Assembly: GCF_965221945.1 (NCBI RefSeq)
Contig: NZ_OZ244925.1
Location: forward strand, 3,466,091 to 3,530,090
Length of the DNA: 64,000 nucleotides
Direction of reading: 5' to 3'
Origin: Candidatus Poriferisodalis sp.
Lineage (GTDB): Bacteria > Actinomycetota > Acidimicrobiia > Acidimicrobiales > Poriferisodalaceae
In this document: positions 35,058 to 57,595 of the stretch, piece after piece
Layout: each line of letters begins with the position of its first letter
Numbering within the stretch: position 1 is the first letter of the stretch
Notes under the pieces: model-generated
Database searches by the model: none
What the model was told of the DNA's origin: nothing
The model's input: only the letters and a program-made list of their open reading frames with translations
Translations under genes and position numbers: made by a program

Positions 35058-35170
35058 GAGACGCGAGGAGCCCCGGGGCCGAAACCCCGGGGCTCCTTCT
35101 CAGTTCTGGCTGACCCGATCGGGCGGGCAGGCCACCCGACCGTTCAGTTCAACTCTGCAGCTAGCTCCTA
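35058..35170 (-). repeat. two-hairpin 3' element, copy 2
   Basis: GGAGCCCCGGGGCCGAAACCCCGGGGCTCC (35067-35096) plus CGATCGGGCGG/CCACCCGACCG (35116-35142) plus CAGTTCAACTC. It abuts the stop codon at 35168-35170. Confidence 0.9.
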
Positions 35171-36470
35171 CTGGGGAGCCTTCACGCTGCTGCTGCGCCC
35201 GATACGGACCTGCGAGCGAGTGTTCATGCTCTCATCAACCTTGATGGTTGTGGTCGCGTCGTCTGCGTAGCCAAGGGCGACCGGCGCAACTGCCGCACGA
35301 GCGTCAGTCTCGACCTCCGTCGTGTTCGGGTCGTCGGTGACTTCCGAAGCGCCCGCCGCTGTGGTCACGAGGTCACGCAACGCCGGCAGCATGATCGCCG
35401 AACTCGTCGTCGCCTCATAGCGGACAGTCGTCCCAGGGTCCGAGAACACATAGTTGTTGTCGGCACTCTCGTCCGTGTCCGCCGTACTCGGGTTATCGGG
35501 CGAGTTATCCAGCACTGCCAAATTGAGACCAGCTCGCACCTCGTCGGTCAGGCCATGGTCCGGGGACGCGGCGTCAGATGCTTGAGCGTCGACGACTCCA
35601 GCCTCCCCGGCGCGTTCAGCCGTTGCAGCCAGAATGTCTTCGAGCAGCGCAATGTTCTCGCTGCCACTCAAGCCGGTGGCTTCGATGTAGGCGTTAAACG
35701 TCACCTGGATCGCAACCTTGGTCTCGCCGCCAGCCAACGCACTGATCGACCAGGTATCCACCTCGAATTCCGTGGGCGTGATTGTGCCGTCGTTGTTGGC
35801 ATCGGCCATGCCGCCGCCACGCTCAAGAGTCGCTATATCCAGCTCCTTCTTGGTCGCAGCCGAACCGCACTTGCCAACGTTGCCGCCGGTGATGGTGTCA
35901 GGGTCAGTGTCGACCTTCACCTCGAACATCGCCGCGAAAGCGCTGTTGGCCTCAAGTTCAGCCGCCAGATCGCCGAATGTGGCCTTGCCGTTGATGAACC
36001 GCACGAACACGGTCCTGTCACGGCTGTTGACCCGAACATCGATGTCGAGGTCCTTCTCGGCGTCGTAGCTGCTGGTCTTGTCGAACACGACCGACCACAG
36101 GTTGCCGACTGCACCAGCAGCGGCACCGTCAGCCTTGGCAGCGATCCAGATGTCCGGAGCGTCGATCGAGCTGTCCTCGGTAGTGGTTGCATCGCCGTCG
36201 TCGGGCGCTGTGCCAGCACCATCAGTCAGGCTGTGAGGCACCGCAGCCACAGCTTGCTTGCTGTGGTTCAGGTTGCTCATCAGCACCGATGTGATGCGCG
36301 GGCTCGCCTGCGCCTTGATGGCCGTGAACGAGCGCTGCAGGTTCTTGTTCTTGTTCGGGGATGTGTCCACGATCGCACCAGCAGCAATGGTCACACGGTC
36401 ACCAGGAGCCAGATCGGCCTTTGTGCCGGTGGCGACGCCGTTCGCATCGGTGGTCTGGAAGCCCAGGCTC
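35168..36470 (-). pseudogene. promoterless 3' portion (~430 codons, frame intact) of a CWB2 S-layer-family gene
   Basis: Near-identical blocks to gene 44496-47489 (DRVTIAAGAIVDTSPN.NKNLQRSFTAIKAQASPRITSVLMS; DLDIDVRVNSRDRTVFVRFINGKATFGDLAAELEANSAF) alternate with divergent blocks. It ends SQVRIGRSSSVKAPQ. The 5' side is joined to a hepT fragment. Confidence 0.75.
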
Positions 36471-36653
36471 TCTGAGGACGCGAAGTCCCGTTGGGCGCAC
36501 ATTCCGTGGGCAGAGATGCGGGGCTTTCGGAATTTCGTGGTGCACGAGTACCACAAGGTCGACCATGAACTTCTGTGGGAAGCCATGTGTCGGGACATCC
36601 CTCAGCTCATCGAGGACCTCACCGCCCACCTGCATTGCCCGCAAGATTCGTAG
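36470..36653 (+). pseudogene. HepT/DUF86 (HEPN toxin) C-terminal fragment
   Basis: HIPWAEMRGFRNFVVHEYHKVDHELLWEAMCRDIPQL carries the R-x4-H-x-Y HEPN motif of HepT. There is no N-terminal part and no MntA partner. Confidence 0.55.
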
Positions 36654-36758
36654 GCCTTATGGTGTGCATGTCTCGCAGTGTTGCTCTGCGGGGAAGACGC
36701 AAGCCCCGGAGGGCCAGTCCGAGACTCCGCAAGGAGTGCCTAGGACGGGAGCCGGGGC

Positions 36759-37268
36759 TTACGCATTGGTCTGCTCCGCTGCGATCCATTCCACTCTTGG
36801 TGAGATGTGATCGGACTGGACTCCTGCAATGCGCGCACACGTGCCGTCGCCAACCGCGTCGCGTGATGCGCCAGCCAGGGCATCGGCGTACCACAGCAGA
36901 GGCTCTCTCTTCGAACTCCATCTGTACGAGAACTCGCAAGAGGGAAGACCACGGAGCCGGTCAAGGATCACGGCACGATCGCGCTCGTCGCTCTTGGTGC
37001 CCCGGGACTCGATAATCAGATCATCGATGCCGTCATTCACGAGCCTGGCGACGAGCTCAGTCATCAGAGCAGCGCGTGCGTGCTCCATGCCGCTGCGGCT
37101 CGTCGCCTGCGCCAGGACGTGGGTGCCAACGGCGTGTTGTCGGATGAGCTGTCGTGCCCCAGCTTGATTTTGGGATCCCTCGTTCTTCCAGTGGAACGGC
37201 CGCGACCGGCCCGGCGCAGTCACCAACTCGCGCATCGAGCGAGCCGCCGGCTCGCTCCCCGGCAGCAC
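36759..37268 (-). CDS. hypothetical protein (tentatively DUF3800-like), probably 5'-truncated
   Basis: DGIDDLIIESRGTKSDERDRAVILDRL...KREPLLWYADALAGA. A 3' fragment of a paralogue lies at 40681-40850, upstream of the AlkB-like gene. Confidence 0.3.
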   Translation of the reverse strand: MLPGSEPAARSMRELVTAPGRSRPFHWKNEGSQNQAGARQLIRQHAVGTHVLAQATSRSGMEHARAALMTELVARLVNDGIDDLIIESRGTKSDERDRAVILDRLRGLPSCEFSYRWSSKREPLLWYADALAGASRDAVGDGTCARIAGVQSDHISPRVEWIAAEQTNA

Positions 37269-37342
37269 AGCGGCGGCGAGGACGCGATCGGAAACCCACG
37301 CGATTCACAACCTGAAGCGAATCCGCTTGTCCCCGGGGTCGG

Positions 37343-37879
37343 TCAGCTGCGACCGGAGCGCACCATGAGGTCGAGGGTGCGCTGGATCTGGGCCATGCGG
37401 CGGGCCTCGTCTGTAGCGCCGAGGTCGGTGAGCAGCATCTGCATCTCGCGGACGTCTTGGCTGGCTTGGGTGGCATCGATCGTGTCGAAGTGGGCCCAGC
37501 GGTTGCGTGCATCACGCAGATGCTCGAGCGTCGGTTGAGTCGTCACCGTGAAGACCTTTTCGAAGGTCGCCGCTTCCTCTCGCCTCAGGAGCACTTGGAG
37601 GTACACGTAGGGGTCGTGCAGCGGAACACGTTCCGCGGAAGCAAAGATCCCGTGCTTCTGGCGCAGCTCGTGGTGCCAGTCGCCGCCGTAGTGGAGTTCG
37701 TAGACGGCCTGCATTCGCGGCATCATCCCGCTCCCGAGCAGCTCAAGCGCCTTCCCGACGAGATCTCGGGCGCTGTCGATGGGCGATGTTGGCCAGAAGG
37801 CGACAATGGTGTCCCGCATCGAGACAGGAACCCGCTTGCCGGCTTGGCCGATCCAGGCCTCCTCGACGTAGTTCGGCAC
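37343..37879 (-). pseudogene. 5'-truncated exact duplicate of the Swt1-like HEPN gene
   Basis: 37331-37898 is identical by eye to 43380-43947. It retains the HEPN half (LRDARNRWAH) and could still be translated from GTG 37879. Confidence 0.6.
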
Positions 37880-37896
37880 ATTCGCCGCTCTTGACG

Positions 37897-38178
37897 ACGC
37901 CCGCCAACGAACCGCCCGGGTTCGTGCCGAGGCTGCGCTGGCAGACCCTGCTGAAGCTGCTGCGCACCAACGGGCTCGAGTGCACCGTCCACGGATTCCG
38001 CTCGTCGTTCAAGACGTGGGTCATCGAGACCACCTCCACGCCATGGGCCGTCGGCGAGGCGGCTCTGGCCCACGTCGTGGCAACACCACCGAGGCCGCCT
38101 ACGTCCGCATCGACCTGTTCGAGCATCGCTGAGAGCTCATGGCCGCCTGGACCGACTTCATTGCACCGAGACGCCGAT
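37897..38178 (+). pseudogene. P4-type tyrosine integrase remnant (C-terminal ~75 codons, frameshifted)
   Basis: ECTVHGFRSSFKTWVIETTSTPWAVGEAALAH..., then shifted ...AAYVRIDLFE. Homologous to 63240-63477. Confidence 0.6.
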
Positions 38179-39662: not shown

Positions 39663-40034
39663 TCAGGTGAACAGGTCGGTGAGCCGGCTCAGCCAGCCCG
39701 CCTCGACGGCTGCGACCTCCACAGCGATGAACACAGCCGCTGCGGTCACCCAGCTGCGGTCCGCCTTGCGCTGCCGGGCGGCGTGCGCACGGTCGGCCTC
39801 GCGCTGGGCAGCCAGCTTGTCGAAGCCGGCTTGCATCTCTTCTTTGGCGGCAAAACGCGACAACTCAGCCGACAGCACTGCGGAGAGATGTTCCTTGGTC
39901 ACCAAGTCCGACAGCGGCGCGGGCGCCAAGCACGACATCAGGTACTCCGCCAACGGCTCGTCGGTCTGTTTACGCAGCCAAGCGTAGAGGCGGGACCGGT
40001 CTCTTGAGACAAGGCTGACTCCTGTTTCCGTCAA
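39663..40034 (-). CDS. small coiled-coil protein with C-terminal TM helix (hypothetical)
   Basis: TTG 40034. LYAWLRKQTDEPLAEYLMSCLAP..., charged coiled-coil, then WVTAAAVFIAVEVAAV. Its 5' third is duplicated in inverted orientation at 39455-39545. Confidence 0.35.
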   Translation of the reverse strand: MTETGVSLVSRDRSRLYAWLRKQTDEPLAEYLMSCLAPAPLSDLVTKEHLSAVLSAELSRFAAKEEMQAGFDKLAAQREADRAHAARQRKADRSWVTAAAVFIAVEVAAVEAGWLSRLTDLFT

Positions 40035-40037
40035 GAT

Positions 40038-40146
40038 GCGAAGAGCTCCGGGCCGAGACCCCGGGGCTCCTCGTTGTTGGTCTTTACCGACCCGGTGGGC
40101 AGGCCGCCGATCGGTTGAGTTCAACTGTGCAGCCAGCTACTGGGAC
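40038..40146 (-). repeat. two-hairpin 3' element, copy 3 (after the AlkB-like gene)
   Basis: GAGCTCCGGGCCGAGACCCCGGGGCTC ... CCGGTGGGCAGGCCGCCGATCGG ... GAGTTCAACTGTGCAGCCAGCTACTGGGA. It retains a CCCAGTAG S-layer-type stop context although the gene upstream is unrelated. Confidence 0.9.
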
Positions 40147-40172
40147 GGAGCCGACGGGTCGGGCCGATCGGA

Positions 40173-40655
40173 TCAGGTTTGTGCCGGCTCGGGGCGTGCG
40201 ATGGTGCGAAAGGTGATCGAGACGCGTCGCTGGCGTGCGATCTTGCGTCCGTTGCAGGTGTCTGTGCGCCGTTTGGCGATGCCGTGACGCCATTGCCAGC
40301 GTGCGTCGCCGTGGAGCAGGACGAGGCTGCGGGGCTCGAGCCGCTGCACGTGCTCGTCGCCGGTCGCGTCGCAGCAGAAGTCCATGTTGACCGCCGACCC
40401 CAGGCTCACGGTCACGACGACCGGTCCGAAGCAGTCCCTGTCGATGTGGGGCGCTATGCCTTGGCCGGGCTCGTATTCGTTGACGATGGCTTGCTCGAAA
40501 GGTCGTTGCGCGTCCACCAAGTGCACAGCTTCTTTGGTCGCAGCTGTACGTACCTTGTAGGTGAGCTGCGTCAACCACTCCGGCAATGGCCCGATGCGGG
40601 CTGACTCGTCGAGCCTGCGGTTCGAGTAGTCGTACTTGTACCCGTAGTGCTGCAC
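40173..40655 (-). CDS. AlkB-like 2OG-Fe(II) dioxygenase
   Basis: QHYGYKYDY, NEYEPGQGIAPHIDRD (HxD), LLHGD, RRVSITFR (RxSxTxR). Confidence 0.7.
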   Translation of the reverse strand: MQHYGYKYDYSNRRLDESARIGPLPEWLTQLTYKVRTAATKEAVHLVDAQRPFEQAIVNEYEPGQGIAPHIDRDCFGPVVVTVSLGSAVNMDFCCDATGDEHVQRLEPRSLVLLHGDARWQWRHGIAKRRTDTCNGRKIARQRRVSITFRTIARPEPAQT

Positions 40656-40850: not shown

Positions 40851-40856
40851 GCTAGG

Positions 40857-41008: not shown

Positions 41009-41707
41009 CTAGCTTGCAACATCGGCTGTCGAGGACGAGGGTTCGAACAATCGTGAGAACCAGGAGATGAACGGCCGCGATTGCGGATGCTGCGGGTCGA
41101 GCAGTCTTCGCATGACGGCCTGGTGCAACTGGGGCCCAGGATCCTCCTGCCATGCGAGCCAGGTATGGACCACAGACTTCGTGACGTCAACGTCCCGCAG
41201 GGACGCTCCCAGTTCGCGCGCCCCGTCAACACTGTGTCTGGCGTACTCCAAGAGTTCGGCGGCCGCGTCGGGGACGAGGCCGAGCAGGAATTCTTCTAAG
41301 GCGCCTCGGTGGCGATTGTCAGGCATGATCCAGACGCCGAACCACGAACCGTCTTGTCGCTGTCGAACGAAGCCGCTTTCAGGCATTTGCTCAGGCAGAT
41401 CAGCCATATCGGGTAGTTCGGACCCGCATCGTTGCCGGATTGCATCCCAGCGCCCAGAGGCGTTGCCGTTGGCGTCGACGACCACACCGAGCCGCTCAAG
41501 GCCGCTGGCCTTGAATTCAGCCGAGATCGTGCCCGCCTTAAGGATGTTCGTGACGCCACCGAAGTCGTCAATGTACGGCACCCGCCTTCCGACATCGGCA
41601 TCGTTCCATGAGATTCCCTGCGCCTCGACGAGCTTTGGGATCAGCCGTAGTTCGGTTGATCCCTCCACGAGCAGCTTCATTGCCGGTGTTCGCGTCTGAA
41701 CTGCCAC
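41009..41707 (-). CDS. DUF4276/DUF3226-like (TOPRIM-like?) partner of the ATPase
   Basis: It begins immediately after the ATPase stop. MKLLVEGSTELRLIPKLV resembles the LVEG.tE N-terminus of these families. The assignment is from memory of that motif only. Confidence 0.4.
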   Translation of the reverse strand: MAVQTRTPAMKLLVEGSTELRLIPKLVEAQGISWNDADVGRRVPYIDDFGGVTNILKAGTISAEFKASGLERLGVVVDANGNASGRWDAIRQRCGSELPDMADLPEQMPESGFVRQRQDGSWFGVWIMPDNRHRGALEEFLLGLVPDAAAELLEYARHSVDGARELGASLRDVDVTKSVVHTWLAWQEDPGPQLHQAVMRRLLDPQHPQSRPFISWFSRLFEPSSSTADVAS

Positions 41708-42811
41708 CTAGCGGACCTCGAGGCCGCGCTCTGCGACCGCCGCAACCTCATGCTCGCTGAAACGGACATTGCTCTTGCCGCTGCCGGGTTCGATTCGGTG
41801 AATCGTCAGATCACCGGGCGGGACGGCGTCGGGGTCAGCGACCGAAGCGAGGCTCTCGTAGCAGTCACGGCTGTGGGTGGTGGCGAATACCTGCACGTCC
41901 AACGATCTTGAGCGCTCGGCGATCATCGTCCACATCTTCTGCATCACCGTGTAGTGCAGGCCCGTGTCGATCTCGTCCACCAGTAGCACTCCGCCTCGCG
42001 CACGCGCCAAGGCCAGTGCCAAGCCAAGCATTCGCCACATTCCGTCGCCGACACTCCCAATGGGAACGCGACCGTCAACGCCTTGCATCCGCAGGAGTAT
42101 CCCGCCCCGCGCACTGCTGCCGAGCGGCGTACGTTTCGATGCGAGTACCGCAAGCCGCTCCACACGAGGCTCGATGAGCCGCATGGCCTCCACCGCCCTG
42201 TCTTCGGCGTCGGTCAGCACCACATCGTCGAAGATGTCGCCGACATCACCGGGAACCAAGCCGCCTGTGCCCACGAACTGGACCCGTGGGATGTCGTCGT
42301 CGGTACCCCAACCGTGCCGGGCCGGCTGCCGAACCGGCAGCATCCCGTCAGCCGTCAAAGCCGCCCGAAATTCGCCCTTTCGTTCGCTGGACGCCCAAAC
42401 AAGTCGCCCTGGCGATTCGTCCGCAGCCTCTCTGGCGTCGTCATGTAGCGGCAACCCCATCTGCACTTGTTCCATTTGCACCGATAGTTCTGTCTTGACT
42501 GCCTCAAGCTGCGAGCTGGGGCCGGACCGTTGCCCCGACACGCAGATGCGCGCTGACATATCTCGGTGCGAGAACAACTGGGCGATGTCGTATACGCGGC
42601 CTTGATCCTCGTCCGGCAGCCACTCGCCGCGCAATTCGAGCAACGAGCGCAACACCCGGTAGTCACTCGCCGAGTGCAGAAGCCCGACGCACTCGAGCAC
42701 CGAGGTCTTGCCCGAATTGTTCGATCCCACCAGCAGGTTCACGCGGCTCAATCCTTCGAGCCGCACCTGTTCGAGGCTTCGGAAGCCGCTGATCTCAATT
42801 GACGAGTACAC
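41708..42811 (-). CDS. ABC/SMC-type AAA ATPase (AAA_15/AAA_21-like)
   Basis: IEISGFRSLEQV, Walker A GSNNSGKTS, signature-like SVGDGMWRML, Walker B VLLVDEIDTGLH, H-loop ATTHS. Confidence 0.8.
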   Translation of the reverse strand: MYSSIEISGFRSLEQVRLEGLSRVNLLVGSNNSGKTSVLECVGLLHSASDYRVLRSLLELRGEWLPDEDQGRVYDIAQLFSHRDMSARICVSGQRSGPSSQLEAVKTELSVQMEQVQMGLPLHDDAREAADESPGRLVWASSERKGEFRAALTADGMLPVRQPARHGWGTDDDIPRVQFVGTGGLVPGDVGDIFDDVVLTDAEDRAVEAMRLIEPRVERLAVLASKRTPLGSSARGGILLRMQGVDGRVPIGSVGDGMWRMLGLALALARARGGVLLVDEIDTGLHYTVMQKMWTMIAERSRSLDVQVFATTHSRDCYESLASVADPDAVPPGDLTIHRIEPGSGKSNVRFSEHEVAAVAERGLEVR

Positions 42812-42884: not shown

Positions 42885-43119
42885 GCAGGCCGCCGATCGG
42901 TTGAGTTCAACTGTGCAGCCAGCTACTGGGACGGAGCCGACGGGTCGGGCCGATCGGATCAGGTTTGTGCCGGCTCGGGGCGTGCGATGGTGCGAAAGGT
43001 GATCGAGACGCGTCGCTGGCGTGTGATCTTGCGCCCGTTGCAGGTGTCTGTGCGCCGCTTGGCGATGCCATGGCGCCATTGCCAGCGTGCGTCGCCGTGG
43101 AGCAGGACGAGGCTGCGGG
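42885..43119 (-). repeat. 235-bp duplicate of 40099-40333 (partial 3' element copy 4 plus AlkB-like gene 3' end)
   Basis: Aligned by eye with about 5 mismatches. It ends abruptly at ...GCTGCGGGG. Confidence 0.85.
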
Positions 43120-43391
43120 GCGGGCTTCGTCGACGACTACCTCCTCGAGGTCGCCGCCCTCGGCCTCGTCAGAGGCAAGTCCGCCCGCGTCAGCGACAAC
43201 GTTCTCGTCACGTTCGTTTGCGTCGCTCACGCTGTTTCGATCAGCGCTTCTCGGTCAAGTGTCTTCAGCGCGCCGAGCAGGCACGCCTCGACAAAGTCCC
43301 AATCACCGGCCAGGTCTCGTTCGGTCAGCAGCCAGACATCCTCGGGAGTCTCCCAATCCTCCAGGCACTCCGCGATGCGCCCCGGGGTCGG

Positions 43392-44324
43392 TCAGCTGCG
43401 ACCGGAGCGCACCATGAGGTCGAGGGTGCGCTGGATCTGGGCCATGCGGCGGGCCTCGTCTGTAGCGCCGAGGTCGGTGAGCAGCATCTGCATCTCGCGG
43501 ACGTCTTGGCTGGCTTGGGTGGCATCGATCGTGTCGAAGTGGGCCCAGCGGTTGCGTGCATCACGCAGATGCTCGAGCGTCGGTTGAGTCGTCACCGTGA
43601 AGACCTTTTCGAAGGTCGCCGCTTCCTCTCGCCTCAGGAGCACTTGGAGGTACACGTAGGGGTCGTGCAGCGGAACACGTTCCGCGGAAGCAAAGATCCC
43701 GTGCTTCTGGCGCAGCTCGTGGTGCCAGTCGCCGCCGTAGTGGAGTTCGTAGACGGCCTGCATTCGCGGCATCATCCCGCTCCCGAGCAGCTCAAGCGCC
43801 TTCCCGACGAGATCTCGGGCGCTGTCGATGGGCGATGTTGGCCAGAAGGCGACAATGGTGTCCCGCATCGAGACAGGAACCCGCTTGCCGGCTTGGCCGA
43901 TCCAGGCCTCCTCGACGTAGTTCGGCACATTCGCCGCTCTTGACGACTTCGTCGTACGTGGAGTGAAGCACCAACGCACATCGTCTCGGCCCCGCCAGCG
44001 GTCGTCGTGGTAGGGGTAGCCGTCCGCGTCAGCGTCGAACACGTTGTGATCGCTGCCTGGTACGTCCTGCCACTTCCAACCGTCGATCTCGACCACAGCA
44101 CGCGTCACACCACGATGGAATGCGACCGCGTACTTGATGTTGAGGCTCTTGACCTCATCGGGGTCCAGCTCCCACCAGCCGCGCATCGACGCGACGATGC
44201 GCTCCCTGCCGTCACCGGGTCGGTATCCGCTGCGGTGGTTCACGTCCGCTCGGTAGCTGAGACGGAACAGGATCGCCGGCGGTGCGTCGTCGGGCACCGA
44301 TGGCAAGTTGTCGAGGTCCGACAT
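43392..44324 (-). CDS. 310-aa protein: unknown N-terminal domain + Swt1-like HEPN domain
   Basis: The C-terminal half (DPYVYLQVLLRRE...LEHLRDARNRWAHFD...) has the R-x4-6-H HEPN motif in a Swt1-like context. The N-terminal 130 aa (YAVAFHRGVTRAVVEIDGWKW) are unrecognised. Confidence 0.55.
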   Translation of the reverse strand: MSDLDNLPSVPDDAPPAILFRLSYRADVNHRSGYRPGDGRERIVASMRGWWELDPDEVKSLNIKYAVAFHRGVTRAVVEIDGWKWQDVPGSDHNVFDADADGYPYHDDRWRGRDDVRWCFTPRTTKSSRAANVPNYVEEAWIGQAGKRVPVSMRDTIVAFWPTSPIDSARDLVGKALELLGSGMMPRMQAVYELHYGGDWHHELRQKHGIFASAERVPLHDPYVYLQVLLRREEAATFEKVFTVTTQPTLEHLRDARNRWAHFDTIDATQASQDVREMQMLLTDLGATDEARRMAQIQRTLDLMVRSGRS

Positions 44325-44392
44325 CGTTGCTCCAGGTTCTTAAGCGTCGACCCGGCGAGTGTAGCCACGGGCGCCCGAATGGGCAGGGAAAT

Positions 44393-44498
44393 GCAAGGAG
44401 CCCCGGGGCCGAAACCCCGGGACTCCAAGTTGTTGGTCCTTACCGATGGGGTGGGCAGGCCACCAATCGGTTCAGTTCAACTGTGCAGCTAACTCCTA
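44393..44498 (-). repeat. two-hairpin 3' element, copy 5
   Basis: GGAGCCCCGGGGCCGAAACCCCGGGACTCC (44397-44426), CCGATGGGGTGGGCAGGCCACCAATCGG, CAGTTCAACTG. It abuts the stop at 44496-44498. Confidence 0.9.
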
Positions 44499-47489: not shown

Positions 47490-47565
47490 GGTTCTGTTTC
47501 TCCCTGTTCCACTCCAGAAGCGCCAAAACGGACCACGAAACGGCTCCAAAACACACGTGCAGGAC
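47490..47565 (-). promoter_or_regulatory. conserved 5' leader of S-layer gene A
   Basis: About 75 nt upstream of the TTG align with 54294-54370 (GGTTCTGTT.CTCCCTGTTC..CTCC...AAACGG.CCACGA.ACGG). Confidence 0.5.
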
Positions 47566-47782
47566 CCGGATTTGCGAAGCGGATCGAGGTTGTTCGCCGG
47601 GTAGTTGGGTGGGTTCTTTGGGACATGCCGGGGAACGCTGCGGGGAACCGTGCTGCTCGGGATCTGGGCGCGGCGGTCCCGTGCTGTTTTGGCCGGTTCG
47701 ATGTTCGGGGGTGTCCCGCCGGTCTGGCTTGTTTGACGGTTTAGGTTGCGTTTGGGGGTTGGGGCACGGGTAGTGTGCTGTC

Positions 47783-48439: not shown

Positions 48440-49500
48440 GCGACGGCTCCGATCGTTCCGACGCGGCGCGCCGAGCTGCACTGCAGGCTCAGATCTCATC
48501 GAGCGAGCCAGACGGCGCAGCCTTCGGCGATGCACCGATGCCTCGGGCCGGCACCGGCTTCGCCGCCGATGTCGACGCGCTGCTCGGCGCAGCCAACGAA
48601 GCGCAGGACAAGACCGGGCTCGACACATCCCAGATCATCCATGACTACTGGCTCGTGCGGTCATTGCACGGCGTTGCCGCCAAGCTCGGCAGCGCCGGGG
48701 AGATGGCCCGCCGCAGCAACGACGGCCGGCGAACGCCCGTGGGCCGATGGGCGTTCGGCGGCGGGACCTCGCTGACCGCCGCCTGGCAGATCGGCGACCG
48801 CTACTCCCAGGACATCGACGGAAGCCTGTTCGTCGAGCACGACGGGATCAGCAAGAGCGTCAGGCACAGAACCTGCAAAGAGGTCCTCGACGCTGCCCTC
48901 GCAGCGATCGGCCCGTCCCAGCACATCACCAACGGCGCCCAGATCCGCACAACGCGCGTCTCGCTCGACGGCGTCGCCAACTACCTGAAGTTCGAGACCT
49001 CCATCCAGGACGTCGACAGCGAACTCGTGGCCAGCATCGTCGAGCCCAGACCGATCGCCTCGATCATCGCTCAGCACTGCGACAGCATCGACCCAGAGAG
49101 ATTCCCCGAGCTCGGAGGATTCGTGCTGCTGTGCGTCCGGCCCGCATGGACTGCGGCGAACAAGTTCGACGCATTGCACCGACGAGCCGCTCAGGGGAAC
49201 CTGAGCGGCATTCGGGACCGGGGCCGCGATCTGTACGACCTGTGGGCAATAGCGAGCTCGGAGCACGCGGACCATGTACGGAGCGAGGTGCGCTCATTGT
49301 GGGAGCGCGCCGCCTCAGCGATACGCGCGGCCGTACCGCGCCCCGACAGCGGCTACGGCAGCACCGAAGTGTTCACCAACGGGACCAGCGCCAACGAAGC
49401 GCTGCGAGCCGGCTACACCGACGCAGTGAACGACACCGTATGGGGCGACGCCCCCTCGTTCGCCGAAGCCCTCACCGCCGCCCGGCACCTCGACACATAG
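48436..49500 (+). CDS. abiEii: AbiEii/AbiGii nucleotidyltransferase toxin
   Basis: FGGGTSLTAAWQIGDRYSQDIDG is the family NTase motif. RDLYDLW near the C-terminus. The start is TTG 48436 or ATG 48538. Confidence 0.8.
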   Translation: MSDGSDRSDAARRAALQAQISSSEPDGAAFGDAPMPRAGTGFAADVDALLGAANEAQDKTGLDTSQIIHDYWLVRSLHGVAAKLGSAGEMARRSNDGRRTPVGRWAFGGGTSLTAAWQIGDRYSQDIDGSLFVEHDGISKSVRHRTCKEVLDAALAAIGPSQHITNGAQIRTTRVSLDGVANYLKFETSIQDVDSELVASIVEPRPIASIIAQHCDSIDPERFPELGGFVLLCVRPAWTAANKFDALHRRAAQGNLSGIRDRGRDLYDLWAIASSEHADHVRSEVRSLWERAASAIRAAVPRPDSGYGSTEVFTNGTSANEALRAGYTDAVNDTVWGDAPSFAEALTAARHLDT

Positions 49501-49561: not shown

Positions 49562-49595
49562 GAAGAGCCCCGGGGCCGAAACCCCGGGGCTCTGG
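49562..49595 (-). repeat. 3' element copy 6, hairpin 2 only
   Basis: AGAGCCCCGGGGCCGAAACCCCGGGGCTCT joined directly to a truncated S-layer fragment. Confidence 0.85.
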
Positions 49596-49600: not shown

Positions 49601-50055
49601 CTGACCGACTCCGTCTCGGGATCGTCGAGCACCCGGTTCGTGCCGCCGGCGACGTTCACGACATCGCGTGACTTGGGCAGCAGCGCTGCGTCCGTCACAC
49701 CGAGGTTGAACCCAAGCGTCCTCGAAGGCGTCTCGACGGTCACTTCCTCACCAGTGTTGGTGAATCTGTCTGCGCCGTCGCCAACGGGGGTCAAGGTCGT
49801 GCCCTCCTTACCGGTGTATGCCACACGGGCCGCAAGGCGCTCCGCAGCTGTCTCGGCGTCCGCCTCGTTGGTGTCGATCACGATGTCATTGCGTGCGAGC
49901 GTGTCGGCAAACACATCAGCGAACAAGCCAGAGTAGGCATCGTCCTCGCGGATCGTATCGACGAAGCCGTTGAAGTTGACCTCGAGCGCCACCTGTGTCA
50001 GTCCGGTGAACTCGCCGTCGGTCAACGCCGCGAACGGCGCGGGGTCTGCCGAGCC
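49601..50055 (-). pseudogene. promoterless internal/3' fragment of S-layer family (gene B type), C-terminal tail deleted
   Basis: GEFTGLTQVALEVNFNGFVDTIRED...LLPKSRDVVNVAGGTNRVLDDPETE parallels GEVTGRSTVGIETNFNGYVDMIHE...LPNERDVVTTAGGKDQIFKDDPDT of gene B. Confidence 0.7.
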
Positions 50056-50835: not shown

Positions 50836-51110
50836 CAAGCCCGACGAGACACAGCGCCGATGTTCAACTACTCGTGACCGAAGACACCGACCTGCTCCCG
50901 GCGGTCCGCGCACTTCGATCCTGCGTCCGACCAGCAGCGGTGTCATGTACCCGTTGCGGCCACCGGACCGCTGGAACCCACCGAGCGACGCCTAACCAGG
51001 GAGCGCCCGTCCGCCGACGCACCCACAGTTGCGCGACGGGCCAGTCAGCACCGCAACCGCACACCTCAGACTCGAACGTGCAGCCGAGCCCAGGCCCAGC
51101 CAGTGCCCTT

Positions 51111-51221
51111 GAGACGCGAGGAGCCCCGGGGCGCAAACCCCGGGGCTCCAAGTTGTTGGTCCTTACCGACCCGGTGGGCAGGCCACCAACCGGTTCAGGT
51201 CAACTGTGCGGCGAACTCCTA
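51111..51221 (-). repeat. two-hairpin 3' element, copy 7
   Basis: GGAGCCCCGGGGCGCAAACCCCGGGGCTCC (51120-51149), CCGGTGGGCAGGCCACCAACCGG, CAGGTCAACTG. It abuts the stop at 51219-51221. Confidence 0.9.
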
Positions 51222-54200
51222 GCTCTCCACTCCAGGTGCCGCGACTGAACTCGACTCGAAGATCCGCACCTGCGACGAAGCGTTGAGCTTCTCGTCCCGG
51301 CCGATAGCCGAATCAGCCTCAGCGGTGCCTGCCGCAGGCGATGGCGTGTCGGGATCGTCGATGAAGCCGGTCGCCACATCAACTACCCCGGCTGTCGCCA
51401 CCTCAGTCCTGTCGGTGTCGGGATCGTCCTTGAAGATCTGATCCTTGCCTCCAGCAGTGGTGACGACATCGCGTTCGTTGGGCAGCTGATCCACATCCGT
51501 CACCCACAGCCCATACCGCAACTGCGTCGTCGGCGTCGCAACGACGGGAGTAGACCCACCCGTGTCGGCGCCGCCACCGCTAGTCGTGAGCATCGTGCCG
51601 GTGACTTCCTCATAGGCAGTACGAGCTGCTGCCAACTCGGTAGCACTGGATGCACCGTCGTCGTCGGCGTCGAGGCTGACGTTGGTCCGATCGAGCGTTG
51701 CCGCGAACACATCGAAGAACAGGGCCGTCTCGTGGATCATGTCGACATAGCCGTTGAAGTTCGTCTCGATGCCTACCGTTGACCGACCTGTCACTTCGCC
51801 GTCCACGCGAGCCGACGTGACTACGTCTGCGGAGAAGTCGTCAACCTCACGGTCAACTTGGTGCTCGACCTGCCTGGTCAGATCAACGATCGACATCTTG
51901 TTGTTGACGCTCTTGCCGCATGGCTTGCTGGCGGTCACCTCAGTGGTGTTATTGAACGCCTCGAACATGCTGCTGAAGCCGCTGTGGTCGTTCAGTGCGG
52001 CGACGAAATCGTCGTAGTAGACGGTGCCGTCGTTGATCCGCGCGCTTACGACCTTGTCGCGGCTGTTGACTCGCACGTCGATGTCGATCTCGTTGTCCTT
52101 GTCCCAGGTGCTGGCCTTGTCGACGACGAAGCTCCAGTCGTTGCCGGCCGCGCCCGCCGCCGCGCCCTCGGGCAGCGCCGTGATCCACAGGTTCGAGCCT
52201 GCACCGGCAACCTCGTCCTTGATCTTGACTTCCATGTGACGGACGTGATGGACGTTGCTCATCCGCACCGAAGTGATCCTCGGATTCACGGGCGGCAGCA
52301 CTGCGGTTACCGAAACCGAACGGTTGCGGTTGCCCGCAGCGTCTTCGAACACGGCGTTCTTGACAGTGATGCGGTCCCGCCGCTCCAAGAGCATCTGCTC
52401 GCTGTCTTCATTTTCGCCGAGCAGCGCGGTGAAGCCAGTACTGATACTGCCCTCGATGCTCGCGATCTCGTTGTCGCCGCTGGCGTCGAGCACGATGTCG
52501 ATGATGGACTTGTCGTCGTCGCTGTCCGCGAACTCGAACATCCTGTTGCCTTTGCCGTCACGGGTGTTTTGCACGAAGTGACTTGGGTAGTAGTTCAGGT
52601 AGGCCGGGTCCGGCCTGTCGCTGACGTGCACCCTGAATCCCGGCTGTCCGACGAGCGCTTCGATGCTCACTGCGGGCCGTGTCGTGTCCGCCTCAGCCTG
52701 AACTGTCTCCGACGTCGGCACAACAGTCCGCTGATCCTCGGAATCACCGAGCTTGATGTTGGACGCAACGATGGAAACGGTGTCGCCGACCTTCAGCGAC
52801 GCACCCGCGAGCAATGTCACCTCGATCACGTCCAAAGCGCACCGGTCATCGCCGCCGCCCGCATGCCGGATCGGCTTGTGAGGCGTGGCGAAACCCGTCA
52901 CGTCGACATCGAGTTGGCCCAGTCGTGCCGGCACGCCGTTGATCTCGAGCAGGTCTCGGATCTTGGTCTCGACGTCATTCGTCGCGATGTCGTCGCTGAA
53001 GTGCAGCCAGAACTGCTGCCCCGGATCATCGGGAGCGACCTTTGCGGGGTTGCGCGCCGACAGCGGGTGCACCTCACTTTCGGAGCCGCTGATCTGGACT
53101 GTCAACTGGTCATCGGACTCAGCGATAGCCGTCGCGGCGTCCATCACGCTGTCACTCACCGCTGCGGTGCCGCCGATGGCGACAATGCTCAGGTTGATCT
53201 TGTTGCCGTTTTCGTACTCCGAAGGAGTGGTTGCAAGGTAATCCCGCACCGACGCTGGCAGCGTGTCTCCGACGACCAGGATCGGGACTAGGTCGCCGCT
53301 GTTGGCATACGTGCTCGACAGCACCGGCGCAGCGGTGATGCCGTCAGGCAGTGCGTCTCGGTGCACCAGCGCAACGGTGTCCTCGGATACCGGAGCGAGG
53401 TCGTCGCTGCAGTCGCCGGTCATCAGCTCAGCGAGGGCAACAGAGGTGGCCGCCGGAGTGTCGCCGGCAATGCGCGTCACTATGTCGACACCGCTGTCAG
53501 TGAGCGCTGCCTCGACGTCTTCGGAGACGCTGCCGGTGCCGCCCACGATCACGACCTGCTCGACATCCTCGGATTCGATGAAGTCTGTCGTGGCTGTCGG
53601 CATTTCGTCGGCTGCGGTCATCAGCACCGGCAGCTGCAGTCGGTGAGCGATCGGGCCGGCAATGACGGCATTGATCAACTCTTCGCTCTCGCCGCTCACC
53701 AGCAGCGCCGCGACCTCGTCGCCGCCGCACCAAGAAGCCGAACCTCCCAGCTGCGAGGCGATCGCAGCGGCGGTGGCATACCGGTCGGCGCCCTCGATGC
53801 GAGACACGTCGGGCTCGTTGGCAAGAGCCTCCATGTCCTCAAGGACCGAGTCGGCGACAGCTGCGCTGCCGCCCAGGACGTGGATTCTCTCCACGCCGTA
53901 GTCCTCGATGAAGTCGGCTACGCCGCCGTGCAGGCTGTCGGCCGGTGTCAACAGCACGGGGGCGTCCATGAAGCTCGCAAGGCCCGACACCGAAACGGCA
54001 TCGACCAGCGAGGAGCCCGAAGCGACGAATGCGGTCGAGATGCCGCCCAGGCCGCCGCGGCCCGTCGCGAAATTCTCTGCGAGGCGAAGTGCTGTGTCGT
54101 AACGATCACGGCCGCCGAACTCACGCACCATCGGCGTATCGGCGTCGTCGTCGTGATCTACGAGCGCTTCGCTAGATGTGTTTGCGGCTTGTGCAGGAGA

Positions 54201-54293
54201 GCCCGCCACGACCGCAAGCACCGATGCCATGAGCATCGCCGCCAGGATCGCCGCCAGGGAACGCCTGCCCCGCCGCTTATGAGTAGTGTTCAA
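51219..54293 (-). CDS. secreted cell-wall-binding (CWB2 x3) S-layer-type protein B
   Basis: TTG start. Signal peptide identical to protein A from RRGRRSLAAIL. Three CWB2 repeats. Divergent central and C-terminal regions. Ends SQVRIFESSSVAAPGVES. Confidence 0.85.
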   Translation of the reverse strand: MNTTHKRRGRRSLAAILAAMLMASVLAVVAGSPAQAANTSSEALVDHDDDADTPMVREFGGRDRYDTALRLAENFATGRGGLGGISTAFVASGSSLVDAVSVSGLASFMDAPVLLTPADSLHGGVADFIEDYGVERIHVLGGSAAVADSVLEDMEALANEPDVSRIEGADRYATAAAIASQLGGSASWCGGDEVAALLVSGESEELINAVIAGPIAHRLQLPVLMTAADEMPTATTDFIESEDVEQVVIVGGTGSVSEDVEAALTDSGVDIVTRIAGDTPAATSVALAELMTGDCSDDLAPVSEDTVALVHRDALPDGITAAPVLSSTYANSGDLVPILVVGDTLPASVRDYLATTPSEYENGNKINLSIVAIGGTAAVSDSVMDAATAIAESDDQLTVQISGSESEVHPLSARNPAKVAPDDPGQQFWLHFSDDIATNDVETKIRDLLEINGVPARLGQLDVDVTGFATPHKPIRHAGGGDDRCALDVIEVTLLAGASLKVGDTVSIVASNIKLGDSEDQRTVVPTSETVQAEADTTRPAVSIEALVGQPGFRVHVSDRPDPAYLNYYPSHFVQNTRDGKGNRMFEFADSDDDKSIIDIVLDASGDNEIASIEGSISTGFTALLGENEDSEQMLLERRDRITVKNAVFEDAAGNRNRSVSVTAVLPPVNPRITSVRMSNVHHVRHMEVKIKDEVAGAGSNLWITALPEGAAAGAAGNDWSFVVDKASTWDKDNEIDIDVRVNSRDKVVSARINDGTVYYDDFVAALNDHSGFSSMFEAFNNTTEVTASKPCGKSVNNKMSIVDLTRQVEHQVDREVDDFSADVVTSARVDGEVTGRSTVGIETNFNGYVDMIHETALFFDVFAATLDRTNVSLDADDDGASSATELAAARTAYEEVTGTMLTTSGGGADTGGSTPVVATPTTQLRYGLWVTDVDQLPNERDVVTTAGGKDQIFKDDPDTDRTEVATAGVVDVATGFIDDPDTPSPAAGTAEADSAIGRDEKLNASSQVRIFESSSVAAPGVES

Positions 54294-54370
54294 GGTTCTG
54301 TTGCTCCCTGTTCAGCTCCGACGGCCCGCAAACGGGCCACGAGACGGGTGCAAAGCACAGGTCTAGGACT
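54294..54370 (-). promoter_or_regulatory. conserved 5' leader of S-layer gene B
   Basis: Aligns with 47490-47565. GGGAGC SD upstream of the TTG. Confidence 0.5.
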
Positions 54371-54517
54371 CACAAACGCGAAGGCATTCGCGGGCGTTCC
54401 CCGACAAATGACCCGGGCCTTTTGAGGTCGGCTGGGGCACACTGCGGGGAACGGCGCAGCGCCGTGTTGCGACAGTCGGAGTCCGGTCGGCTCAGCGCGT
54501 GCTGTGCGTGGCTGCGG

Positions 54518-55744
54518 CTATGGGTGCAGGGCGAACGGGTTGAGGAATTGGCGGCCCCACAAGCGTTCGCGGTCGGCCTGGGACAGTTGCGCGGCGTCGC
54601 AGACGTCTTGCCAGTGCTCGGTGATCGTGTCGATGTGGCTGTCGATGATGGCTTGGGCTTCGTGGCTGTCGAGGTGATAGATGTGGGCGTGCTCGGCGCA
54701 GCGGGCGGCTTGGCTGAGGCGTTCGCCGTTGGGGCCATAGGCCATTGCCTGGTGGGCCTCGCCTCCTGTGCGTTGTTGGGGGCAGATGTCGTATGCGGGT
54801 GTGAGGGTGAGCTCGCGGCCGTTCCAGAAGGCGGAGTGGTTCTTGGCGTGGTCGTCGGTGTTGCTGACGAAGATGTTGAACACGATCCGGGAGAACAGCT
54901 CCCGCAGGGTCGCGTCGGGGGAACCGAACCGGGCTCGGATCGAGTCGGCGAGTGCGGCATATGTCGCGTAGCGGCCGGCGATTCCGTGGGCGTCGTGGAG
55001 GTCCAAGATGGTCAGCGCAGAGATCATCATCCGGCGTTTGCGCGGCGGTGAGCGGTCGAAGCGGCGCACGAGCAGCACGTCACGGCCGGCGGCGGCGGCG
55101 AACTCGACCCGGGCGGTGTCGATCCCCGCGCGGCGGGCGAGTTCCATCGCGATGTACTCGGCCTTCACGACGGGGTAGGTGTCGCGAGAAGACGTGAACT
55201 TGGCGATCACGCCTGTGCGTTGGTCGCGCAGTGCGACCTTGGGACGCGCACCGCCGATCGAGGTGCCGTCCAGCAGCGCCCGCTCCAGTGCGGGCGGCAG
55301 CGGCTGGCCGTCTTCGACGCGCTGTGCGGCCTCGGCGAGCTGGCCGAGATCGGCGCCTTCGCCGCTTCGAGGGGTGTACTCGGTCGCGCTCGCCTGGAAG
55401 TCGAGCGCGCCAGCTCGGTCCGAGCCTGATTCGAGCAGGTACGCGAGCTCGGACAGATCGGTGTCCGACGCCCGCAGCCGGTACTCGATCACTCGACGTC
55501 CCCATGCGTCGGGCGCGGCATCGGCGATGCACCCCGGCAGCGTTCCCGAGGTGGGCGCGATCTCGCCGCTGCGCAAGGGCAGATCCGGCAGGTACAGCGC
55601 GATCGCGTCGGGATTGGCCAGGTAGCTGCGCCCGTAGGTGAAGGTCACCGCGCCGCTGCCGTGATCGTCGAGACGCCCGGCGACGACGGCCTCGTCTGCG
55701 TCCGGAAGCCATACCCAGACATACACCGTTGCGGGGTGCTGCAT
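54518..55744 (-). CDS. hipA: HipA-family Ser/Thr kinase toxin
   Basis: SIGGARPKVALRD, NTDDHAKNHSAFW, LTPAYDICP are HipA signatures. Confidence 0.85.
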   Translation of the reverse strand: MQHPATVYVWVWLPDADEAVVAGRLDDHGSGAVTFTYGRSYLANPDAIALYLPDLPLRSGEIAPTSGTLPGCIADAAPDAWGRRVIEYRLRASDTDLSELAYLLESGSDRAGALDFQASATEYTPRSGEGADLGQLAEAAQRVEDGQPLPPALERALLDGTSIGGARPKVALRDQRTGVIAKFTSSRDTYPVVKAEYIAMELARRAGIDTARVEFAAAAGRDVLLVRRFDRSPPRKRRMMISALTILDLHDAHGIAGRYATYAALADSIRARFGSPDATLRELFSRIVFNIFVSNTDDHAKNHSAFWNGRELTLTPAYDICPQQRTGGEAHQAMAYGPNGERLSQAARCAEHAHIYHLDSHEAQAIIDSHIDTITEHWQDVCDAAQLSQADRERLWGRQFLNPFALHP

Positions 55745-55748
55745 CGGT

Positions 55749-56075
55749 TCAGAAGTCGTCGTCGACTGCACGGCGGCGCGTTCGGGCGGGCAGCACAGCG
55801 AGACGCGCGTCGACCAGCTCTGCCTCCCGGGCACGCACCGACGCGTCATGGCTGAACAGACGCACGCCGACTAGCGCGGCCGCTTCGAACGCTGTCCCCA
55901 GCGCTACGGTTGGGTCGCCTCGCTCGACCTTTCGCATCGTGACCTCACTGGTGCCGACGCGCTCAGCGAGATCCGCGAGAGTCCACCTGCGCTCCCGCCG
56001 ACCGAGCGCCACGCGGCGCCCGAGCAGTCGGGCAGCTTCCAACGTGACCTTGCTCCGCGGCCCCTTCGCTTCCAT
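55749..56075 (-). CDS. hipB: HipB-like XRE-family HTH antitoxin
   Basis: WTLADLAERVGTSEVTMRKVERGDP. It ends 4 nt before the hipA ATG. Confidence 0.75.
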   Translation of the reverse strand: MEAKGPRSKVTLEAARLLGRRVALGRRERRWTLADLAERVGTSEVTMRKVERGDPTVALGTAFEAAALVGVRLFSHDASVRAREAELVDARLAVLPARTRRRAVDDDF

Positions 56076-56119
56076 GGTCGATATTATAATATGGTTTACA
56101 GGTATTGACCATCGGTAAA

Positions 56120-56560
56120 TTACGTATTCTGCCAGCGACGGCCGACGTTCCCCGCCGGATCGGGGCTCAGCAGGTCCTGCGGGCTGATGGCGGGGATCGG
56201 CGATCGCTCGTAGTCCCTCAGGTTCCGTGTGACGATGCATCGGGCGCCGCACGCACGAGCGGCTGCCACCTGCAGAGCGTCCTCGAAGTCGTCCATCGGG
56301 AGCCCGGCGGCGTACCGAACCGAATCGGTGTCTGTAGTGGCGACGCTGACGAACGCAACGAGCTCAGTCACGAAGTCGCGCGTCCGGATATCTCCCTGCA
56401 CGGGCGCGACGAGGTAGTACAGGTTCGATACCGAATGCCACGCGATGGCGGCCCGTTCGAAGCCCAGCTCGATCCGCTCGAGCACCTCGACTGCGGCCGC
56501 CGCGTGCGGATCGCGGTCGAGAGCGACATCGATGAGCACATCGGTGTCCAGCAGGATCAT
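56120..56560 (-). CDS. vapC: VapC-type PIN-domain toxin
   Basis: MILLDTDVLIDVAL..., DFEDALQVAAA, IVTRNLRDY. Confidence 0.8.
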   Translation of the reverse strand: MILLDTDVLIDVALDRDPHAAAAVEVLERIELGFERAAIAWHSVSNLYYLVAPVQGDIRTRDFVTELVAFVSVATTDTDSVRYAAGLPMDDFEDALQVAAARACGARCIVTRNLRDYERSPIPAISPQDLLSPDPAGNVGRRWQNT

Positions 56561-56781
56561 CGAAGGTACTTGCCGGCCAAAGCCGCATATCGGGCATCAT
56601 CCCGCTCCGCTGGACTGAACCGGCCACGCCAACGCGACGCAAACGACGGCTCGCCTTCGTCAATGACCTCGCGCAAGGACATCTCGATCAGCGACGACAA
56701 CGACACGCCCTGCGCACGCGCGTGGCGCTTCGCCGCGGGAACGAGGTTCGAATCGACAGTGATGGTGAGCTTCTGCTTCAT
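56557..56781 (-). CDS. small antitoxin (DUF6364/RHH-like) of the PIN toxin
   Basis: MKQKLTITVDSNLVPAAKRHARAQGVSLSSLIEMSLRE. 4-nt overlap with vapC. Confidence 0.6.
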   Translation of the reverse strand: MKQKLTITVDSNLVPAAKRHARAQGVSLSSLIEMSLREVIDEGEPSFASRWRGRFSPAERDDARYAALAGKYLR

Positions 56782-56935
56782 TGCTGACCGCGCCTTGCCT
56801 GGATGTCGGCACAGCATATACGGCATCGTTGACTACGTACACGTATATCGCTCCTCGGCACATGATGCCGTGGCTTGCGCTGGAGTAGGTAACCGCCGTG
56901 CAGCGGACGTGGGATTGCAGCCCACAAGTGAGCAC

Positions 56936-57047
56936 AGACGCGAGGAGCCCCGGGGCCGAAACCCCGGGGCTCCCTCTCAGTTTTGGCTGTCCCGATCGGG
57001 CGGGCAGGCCACCCGACCGTTCAGTTCAACTGTGCAGCTAGCTCCTA
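56936..57047 (-). repeat. two-hairpin 3' element, copy 8
   Basis: Same subtype as copy 2. GGAGCCCCGGGGCCGAAACCCCGGGGCTCC (56944-56973). It abuts the stop at 57045-57047. Confidence 0.9.
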
Positions 57048-57495
57048 CTCGGGAGCGTCGACGGCGCTGCTGCGTCCGATGCGGACTTGCGACGCAGCGT
57101 TCTTCTCGTCGTTGTCAGCGACGGGTGCGTAGCCAGTAGCGATCGCCGCAACAGCGGCCGCTTGCTCATCGGTATCCGTATTCGGGTCGTCCGAAACAGC
57201 GTCGGCACCAGCCGCCGTGGTCACGAGGTCACGCACCTGCGGCAGCGCTGCTGCGTTGTTGGTGATCGCCTCGTCGCGCACGGTGGTCTTCGGGCCAACG
57301 AACGTCTCCGGGCTGCCCAAGGTAAGGGCGGTGGTCACCGCAGCGGTGTCAGCCAGGCCGTTGTCACGGTCGACGACGTCCTTGACGATGTCCTCAAGCA
57401 GCCCAGTGTCGGTAACAGTCTGCACGTAGCCGTTGACTTCGGCTGTGTCACGGCCAGCAATCATGATGGCGCTGATCGTCGAACGGGCGGCGGCA
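57045..57495 (-). pseudogene. promoterless, internally deleted 3' fragment of S-layer family
   Basis: STISAIMIAGRDTAEV (compare PTISVIMIAGRSTAEV of protein A) is fused to a variable C-terminal block. Ends SQVRIGRSSAVDAPE. Confidence 0.7.
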
Positions 57496-57595
57496 CGCAA
57501 CATGCTGAACGAGCTCGCCGCTGCCGGGGTGGTACGTCCGGTCGGAAACACACGCGCGCGCCGCTACCACTGGGTCGAGGACCGTGCCGAGAGCT

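Follow-up and report, generated by a model that had tools for sequence, protein, structure and literature searches.

Full-length and truncated members of a recombining CWB2 surface-protein gene family in a defence island of Candidatus Poriferisodalis

The window analysed here, a 64-kb stretch of DNA from a metagenome-assembled genome of the sponge symbiont Candidatus Poriferisodalis sp. (Acidimicrobiia), carries two full-length genes, A and B, for predicted wall-anchored surface proteins with three CWB2 repeats each, along with three headless fragments of such genes, F1 to F3, and several shorter remnants. We regard it as probable that these copies belong to a recombining family of CWB2-anchored surface proteins that evolves by birth and death within a defence island, and that the fragments are relics which still exchange sequence passively. 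The anatomy of the locus, the recombination mosaics among its copies, the origin of F1 and F3 as relics, crossovers in the 5' region of the genes and, in a relative, one exchange tract shared by a truncated and a full-length copy are observed directly.

In the course of events that we favour, full-length paralogs would duplicate within the defence and toxin-antitoxin island, recombine through their conserved 5' part (leader, signal peptide and CWB2) and their conserved 3' part (tail and untranslated region, UTR), and be cut by inserted toxin-antitoxin, defence and insertion sequence (IS) DNA as well as by deletions. F1, F2, F3 and the stubs that consist of UTR only would then be once full-length paralogs at differing stages of decay, and relics that remain similar enough would keep joining ordinary homologous recombination or gene conversion with full-length genes. 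Since such exchange would proceed only by ordinary recombination while similarity lasts, the relics would amount to a passive sequence reservoir rather than a dedicated donor archive.

Two full-length genes, headless fragments and a common 3' element

The copies of the family and their parts lie at the following positions of the window, which has a GC content of ~64%:

44496-47489, minus strand: gene A, 997 aa, with TTG start, RRxGRRS signal peptide, three CWB2 repeats and a variable C-terminal region of ~600 aa
47490-47580, minus strand: leader and ribosome-binding site of gene A (GGGAG, ~12 nt, TTG), placed by alignment with the upstream region of B
51219-54293, minus strand: gene B, 1024 aa, a paralog of A with leader and signal peptide as in A, three CWB2 repeats, and divergent body and tail
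54294-54384, minus strand: leader of gene B, conserved with the A leader
35168-36466, minus strand: F1, a 432-codon headless 3' relic, mosaic against A (homologous part 35171-36466)
49609-50031, minus strand: F2, a B-like internal relic of ~142 codons without head or tail
57045-57500, minus strand: F3, a 5'-truncated and internally deleted relic (homologous part 57048-57437)
44385-44495, minus strand: 3' UTR and intrinsic terminator of A, subtype I
51108-51218, minus strand: 3' UTR and terminator of B, subtype I
35055-35167, minus strand: 3' UTR and terminator of F1, subtype II
56932-57044, minus strand: 3' UTR and terminator of F3, subtype II
31628-31795, plus strand: relic of tail and 3' UTR, inverted and with decayed tail, at the right edge of a 14.6-kb strain-specific island
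40028-40141, minus strand: UTR-only relic of subtype I (3' element at 40114-40133) after an AlkB-like gene fragment, its coding tail gone
42885-42919, minus strand: UTR relic cut inside hairpin 1 (element at 42900-42919), within a 237-bp duplicate of 40099-40335
62455-62506, minus strand: partial 3' UTR relic, found by BLAST of the window against itself

Judged by their domains, A and B are members of the CWB2/Cwp-type cell-wall-binding family. Pfam finds three PF04122 CWB2 repeats in each protein (117.7 bits for A, 125.8 bits for B), and Cwp6, Cwp8 and SlpA-HMW of Clostridioides difficile are homologs of the CWB2 part, with E-values of 1e-22 to 3e-10. The label 'S-layer' for the two proteins would derive from this CWB2 triad, only the anchor domain being common with SlpA. 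Between A and B, identity is 46-47% at the protein level and 76% in the DNA of their first 1.2 kb, and their alignment is near-identical from ~90 nt 5' of the common TTG to the end of the signal peptide. The TTG must be the start of B, since an in-frame stop lies just 5' of it, and the start of A is set at the 47489 TTG by alignment with B. Read from the sequence letters alone, the N-terminus is RRRGRRSLAAILAAMLMASVLAVVAGSPAQA/ANTS, in which a basic n-region, a hydrophobic core and the cleavage motif AQA can be made out. Both genes are presumably expressed. For the variable region, neither a Pfam family nor a PDB fold match at E<=0.001 was found, and its AlphaFold2 model is of moderate confidence (predicted local distance difference test score, pLDDT, of 67.6). 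A and B are absent from a collection of 5.8 billion proteins, although the F1 open reading frame (ORF) of the same genome is present there as P0001, a protein recorded as hypothetical for Candidatus Poriferisodalis sp. and encoded on a contig of 3.9 Mb. In the public annotation, the two full-length genes with their TTG starts have probably not been called as proteins.

Upstream of A, a G-quadruplex (G4) motif, GGGTAGTTGGGTGGGTTCTTTGGG, lies at 47599-47622 on the plus strand, ~110 nt 5' of the gene start, and its composition is like that of the pilE G4. There is none upstream of B, and 3/52 upstream regions of the family carry one against ~1.3 expected (background 0.058 per kb). As a pilE-like recombination initiator the motif was ruled out, not being conserved in the family.

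The initial annotation had described two full-length genes with TTG start, leader, signal peptide and three CWB2 repeats, together with fragments that lack promoter and head, and both descriptions stand: the former on Pfam, the A/B alignment and the in-frame stop of B, the latter on the leader motif, which like the signal-peptide DNA occurs twice in the window, at A and B only, F1, F2 and F3 having neither. It was likewise right that the headless F1 and F3 have a conserved tail and 3' element in common with full-length genes, and that the fragment which it placed at 49601, our F2, has no tail. The tail remnant that it reported at 31628-31689 is present, but it is inverted, its tail is decayed and its UTR reaches 31795. 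Long open frames in the fragments, another of its claims, hold for F1 with its 432 codons; the 401-codon ORF around F2 is mostly an unrelated GC-rich open frame, in which the homologous part comprises only ~142 codons.

F1 matches the last 404 residues of A (614-1017) with 66% protein identity, and 87% DNA identity across 733 nt, whereas F3 matches the last ~155 (862-1017) with 36%; residue and nucleotide numbers of A in the F1 and F3 matches are counted from an upstream TTG at 47549, so that 20 residues are to be subtracted for the 47489 start. F2 is 45% identical to B residues 827-961, and a terminator hairpin at 49565-49592 is joined directly to it. F3 must have been deleted internally, since it also includes 58 nt from further upstream in the gene, equivalent to nt 1672-1729 of the A ORF. 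The relics are graded from open-frame fragments down to UTR-only stubs and in this sense form a decay series.

One element of ~110 nt follows all four complete tails and runs from the stop codon to a 13-bp GC hairpin; as a structured 3' UTR with terminator, it occurs at least seven times in the window. One subtype is found at A, B and the stub at 40114, the other at F1, F3 and the inverted relic. The element is conserved throughout the genus (copies in loci L001-L029), more strongly than the coding sequence. Across 26 distinct genus copies, hairpin 1 displays compensatory changes (GGTGG/CCACC, GGCGG/CCGCC, GGCAG/CTGCC), whereas the terminator stem is invariant and its loop varies. Hairpin compensation and stem invariance point to an explanation at the RNA level, and in the simplest reading the element would serve a highly expressed gene as structured 3' UTR and intrinsic terminator. 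The copies also have in it ~100 nt of common homology. No known RNA family of Rfam was matched in the window. An integron attC-like reading, suggested by a GTTGAAC core that fits GTTRRRY, was dropped: chance alone would be expected to place so degenerate a 7-nt motif in an element of 100 nt, and there is no integrase nearby.

Exchange between A and F1 and among close strains

The mosaic relation of A and F1, noticed in the initial annotation, is genuine and extends to sites that escape protein constraint. Synonymous divergence, computed in 30-codon windows, switches back and forth from 0.00-0.02 to 0.44-0.78. Identical third codon positions extend over a run of at most 61, and perfect nucleotide identity over at most 115 nt; 0 of 10,000 permutations reached either length (p<1e-4 for the 61 third positions). 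Because the synonymous sites are themselves mosaic, the pattern reflects recombination beyond mere constraint. Some of the blocks conserved between A and F1, such as DIDVRVNSRD and PRITSV, are conserved in B and in the family as well.

A scan of the genome collection returned 31 loci; 35 loci had been fetched at the first search for donors, and 40 by the end. Two of the relatives are close to the window. The flanks of L001 are 98-100% identical to it, and L001 holds an identically truncated F1 with the same 5' junction. Its single full-length gene is hybrid, joining upstream region and 5' end of B to a ~300-nt segment from a third source and to the body of A. The flanks of L005 (with L008, NZ_OZ240249.1) are 97-99% identical. 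Here, a full-length gene at 8288-11272 has F1 sequence as its 3' end: positions 8765-9264 match the CWB2 region of A with 95-100% identity (100-nt windows), 9265-10000 are unlike anything in the window, and from the exact F1 junction on the sequence is 97% identical to F1 and continues into the same downstream flank. The F3-type tail of L005 terminates a 914-codon open frame, and the source allele of F3 exists at full length both as L005 gene 1 and as protein P0008. F1 and F3 are therefore positional relics, having full-length counterparts at the same place in L005. The head of F1 was lost after the split from L005 and before that from L001. In L005, the module of HipA, PIN and F3 is inverted relative to the window, and two full-length genes stand in divergent orientation.

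Since the split from L001, no exchange took place between A and F1, as a four-way alignment of the two copies from the window and L001 holds 217 orthology sites, 2 concerted sites and 1 crossed site. By this count (217:2:1) no transfer from silent to expressed copy was found between the window and L001. The body of A is 95-100% identical to that of L001 in 150-nt windows, similar to the flanking DNA. What changed between the close strains is the silent F1, the variable body of A being unchanged. In L001, F1 carries a replaced tract of ~600 nt (window 35317-35900) with 64-77% identity inside flanks of 98-100% and with in-frame indels. The F1 of the window has a short strain-specific replaced tract of its own at codons 211-227 (within ~35747-35854, codons 205-240), which includes an insertion of eight codons. 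Donors of the replaced tracts were found neither in the window nor in the fetched loci. The eight-codon insertion creates a calcium-loop motif of EF-hand/dockerin type, DANNDGTITPTEFEVD, with weak Pfam matches to Dockerin_1 and EF-hand_5.

The open frame of F1 is no evidence of selection, since its staying open by chance is likely: 2.1% of single substitutions create a stop codon, and the probability of no stop at the observed age is 0.67-0.82. On the F1 branch, 14 synonymous and 17 non-synonymous changes are counted, most of them within the replaced tract, and these are too few for discrimination by the ratio of non-synonymous to synonymous rates (dN/dS).

In A itself, 47266-46971 shares ~96% identity with the 5' region of L005 gene 1, and there L001 and L005 gene 2 agree together; from 46970 on, A, L001 and L005 gene 2 are all 98-100% identical. 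This foreign segment, in the CWB2 part of the gene, is marked as a conversion tract by the match. The mosaicism between strains at full-length loci, for which the initial annotation had proposed to compare relatives, is thus found in the L001 hybrid, the L005 hybrid and this tract of A.

The family across the genus, its genomic setting and competing explanations

More than 90 homologs were found; clustered at 90% identity, nearly all of them are singletons, and they are 35-56% identical to A. Outside L001, the closest A-type variable region is 56% identical. With A and B absent from the protein collection and the nearest variable region at this distance, there is no strain series for A. The number of full-length copies per genome ranges from 2 to at least 7, arranged in tandem or inverted, and fragments are often lacking altogether; inverted pairs occur in L013, L015, L018 and L019, while same-strand tandem arrays dominate in L002 and NZ_OZ242363.1. 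Proteins of 540-630 aa in the databases that appear to be without CWB2 were left out of the counts of silent cassettes, since several come from contigs of 1-3x coverage, where frameshifts split full-length genes. The P0066 locus belongs to a different species, with 65% nucleotide identity. A metagenome scan with the variable region of A gave no match, and one with the 20-nt 3' element gave four contigs, none truly similar to the window.

The richest array is that of NZ_OZ242363.1, where at least 4 full-length and ~9 headless copies stand on one strand within 120 kb, without internal stops. Counted over 2.215-2.335 Mb (L009, L010, L011, L023 and L025), at least 17 copies of the family share this strand, two tandem full-length genes among them being 100% identical. 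Some headless copies begin ~45 nt past the terminator of the preceding copy. Every truncated copy has a full-length counterpart in the same genome to which it is 88-99.6% identical, and it is on this account that we take the truncated copies for young duplicates and not for a diverse archive. One of them, c10, differs from the full-length c1 by 7-17 differences per 30 codons over 180 codons, and then by 0 over 480; the zero-difference tract measures 1.44 kb and ends just past the conserved 3' terminator. It reflects either recent exchange or overwriting by duplication, in either direction. The possibility raised in the initial annotation, that fragments in relatives bear stops or frameshifts, was found to apply in part: several partial copies have frame changes, stops or lost tails, whereas the headless copies of this array are free of stops.

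The 5' ends of F1 and F3 abut toxin-antitoxin, defence and IS DNA. Their junction neighbours are a HepT remnant, HEPN_Swt1, NYN, AbiEii, HipA, PIN, PDC-M38 and transposases of rve and IS1182-like type, and in the window as a whole the copies of the family are interleaved with HipA, PIN, AbiEii, two NYN genes, HEPN_Swt1, PDC-M38 A+B, an AlkB-like fragment and two IS. The neighbours with assigned positions are:

41009-42811, minus strand: PDC-M38 A+B, a PADLOC candidate defence system (AAA_21/AAA_15 ATPase and DUF3226; E-values 3e-71 and 7e-53)
48181-49500: AbiEii
54518-55849: HipA
56120-56560: PIN
57803-59382 and 59376-60995: an abutting pair of an rve-type integrase IS and an IS1182-like (DDE_Tnp_1) IS, adjoining F3

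With PDC-M38, AbiEii, HipA and PIN nearby, the surface-protein genes lie in a defence and toxin-antitoxin island. Three tandem copies with 81% identity to the IS1182-like element truncate a paralog in L002. Comparison of the window with itself reveals many segmental duplications, including a 568-bp direct repeat, 100% identical, at 37331-37898 and 43380-43947 within HEPN_Swt1 genes. The repeats bracket ~5.5 kb (NYN, the AlkB-like fragment and PDC-M38 A+B) that are missing from L001, which is either a recent duplication-insertion in the window or a repeat-mediated deletion in L001. Besides this DNA between the two HEPN repeats, L001 is also without the island at 17184-31803, a 14.6-kb region of lower GC (55-60%) that is absent from L005 too; its genes encode luciferase-like monooxygenases, an enoyl-CoA hydratase and a CoA-transferase.

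Several points weigh against a birth-and-death family with passive relics. Throughout the genus, ~16 headless copies with native 3' end face ~3 tail-less ones, and ~5 copies are without both ends. Purely random truncation would not give the ~16:3 bias, for which selection against expressed signal-peptide/CWB2 stubs or 5'-anchored displacement of alleles are possible causes. The ~9 open, same-strand headless copies of NZ_OZ242363.1 look like an archive, and both F1 orthologs gained their in-frame replaced tracts after truncation. To these come caveats of the data: all genomes compared are metagenome-assembled, frameshifts in L001 are unreliable at its coverage of 3x (as are reading frames in L003 at 1x), and strain-chimeric assembly could mimic some junctions. 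The bias and the open one-strand array would suit a programmed gene conversion for surface variation, most like that of Mycoplasma synoviae vlhA, in which headless cassettes are kept as donors and tracts are copied at high frequency into promoter-bearing genes, with the conserved CWB2 region and the conserved tail and 3' UTR as anchors. Such a programme would also accord with a leader and signal peptide at A and B only, with cassettes that retain the native tail and 3' UTR, with the genuine synonymous-site mosaic of A and F1, with the 1.44-kb tract without differences that a truncated and a full-length copy share up to the 3' element, with the hyperdiversity of the family and with the open frames of the fragments. 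We nevertheless hold it to be unlikely. F1 and F3 are positional relics of full-length L005 genes, the 217 orthology sites against 2 concerted ones leave no transfer between A and F1 since the L001 split, and between close strains the silent copy changed and not the variable body of the expressed gene; by these observations, the maintained silent archive of pilE/pilS type that the initial annotation had thought possible for the fragments is not supported. Moreover, the truncated copies of NZ_OZ242363.1, being 88-99.6% like resident genes, add little diversity, many relatives have full-length copies only, the relics form a decay series, the G4 upstream of A is no family feature (3/52), and the window shows no recombinase linked to the locus, although a phage-type integrase lies beside copies in L003. 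That headless copies with their 3' UTR and terminator serve as a working cassette system, with tracts anchored at the 3' element and at CWB2 or internal blocks, seems to us doubtful.

Inversion might instead swap a promoter among full-length paralogs, as in Campylobacter fetus sap or Lactobacillus slpA/slpB, with crossovers in the conserved 5' region of oppositely oriented copies placing different bodies behind an active promoter, and leave the fragments as by-products. The divergent full-length pair and inverted HipA-PIN-F3 module of L005, and the inverted pairs of L013, L015, L018 and L019, would fit this, as would the 5' crossovers: in A, a ~300-nt stretch of the 5' CWB2 region of L005 gene 1 gives way to sequence resembling that of L005 gene 2, which is the expected product of a 5' crossover, and the crossover in the L001 hybrid is also in the 5' region. 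But A and B each have their own leader, the leader-bearing genes of the window are on one strand, tandem same-strand arrays dominate L002 and NZ_OZ242363.1, no single-promoter arrangement is evident, and the events are differences between genomes, with no switching within one; we find this explanation quite improbable. Plain neutral decay without exchange, in which the block pattern would stem from uneven protein constraint, could draw on the blocks DIDVRVNSRD and PRITSV, conserved in A, F1, B and the family, and on the decay series of the relics. It is contradicted by mosaic synonymous sites (run of 61, p<1e-4), and tracts of 64-77% identity inside 98-100% flanks and the hybrid genes of L001 and L005 also speak against it, so that we give it little credence. 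The initial annotation had named such decay as its alternative, and the decay itself is real; it goes along with ongoing homologous exchange, and this combination is what a birth-and-death family with passively exchanging relics comprises.

Relevance and likeness to known systems

Sponge symbionts live under constant phage pressure and under the phagocytic surveillance of their host, and to our knowledge variation of their surface is essentially unstudied. In Candidatus Poriferisodalis, the main wall-anchored surface-protein family is hyperdiverse, lies within defence and toxin-antitoxin islands, and undergoes homologous recombination, inversion and truncation that reshuffle it from one near-identical genome to the next. 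Pressure by phages or the host may be the driver of this diversity. As the genomes come from long-read metagenomes, donation from relic to expressed gene within a population can be tested on existing reads. If it occurs, a cassette system would diversify the cell surface against recognition by phages or the host; no system of this kind would have preceded it in Actinomycetota, among CWB2 proteins or in a sponge symbiont. If the relics donate nothing, the locus is an ordinary but clear case of birth-and-death evolution of surface proteins.

In composition, the family is like the Cwp/SlpA proteins of C. difficile, CwpV included: the triple CWB2 anchor is common to both, and both are clustered families of several paralogs with a variable exposed part. 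In C. difficile, recombinational replacement of the variable S-layer part between strains is known, and the Poriferisodalis locus resembles this S-layer cassette recombination in its mechanism as well. However, the C. difficile proteins are those of Bacillota, whereas the present family belongs to Actinomycetota and has tandem arrays, headless relics and a structured 3' UTR.

Among systems with silent copies, M. synoviae vlhA, Neisseria pilE/pilS, Borrelia vlsE and Treponema tprK have the same promoter-bearing genes with clustered, same-strand, 5'-truncated copies whose 3' end is retained, conserved segments in common at which conversion can be anchored, and recombination mosaics. In the window, by contrast, several full-length copies have their own leaders, and the fragments are young in-situ relics beside toxin-antitoxin and IS DNA. 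Compared with pilE/pilS, the locus has promoter-bearing genes and promoterless partial copies, but neither a family-wide cis element as initiator (G4 in 3/52), nor a transfer into the variable body seen between close strains, nor a maintained diverse archive. In C. fetus sapA and Lactobacillus acidophilus slpA/slpB the 5' region is conserved, and here too there are 5'-region crossovers and an inversion between relatives, bodies having been exchanged through the 5' region in L001 and A as evolutionary events. C. fetus sap and L. acidophilus slpA/slpB use one promoter on an invertible segment, with complete silent genes. The window differs from them in that every full-length gene has its own leader, with no single invertible promoter, and in that many copies are truncated. 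Finally, the orphan 3' modules of rhs and cdiA are displaced homologous 3' fragments that lie downstream and can be fused again by recombination, to which the L005 gene, with F1 joined to a full 5' part, may be compared; the Poriferisodalis family has no toxins and no immunity genes, and its intervening DNA consists of toxin-antitoxin and defence modules.

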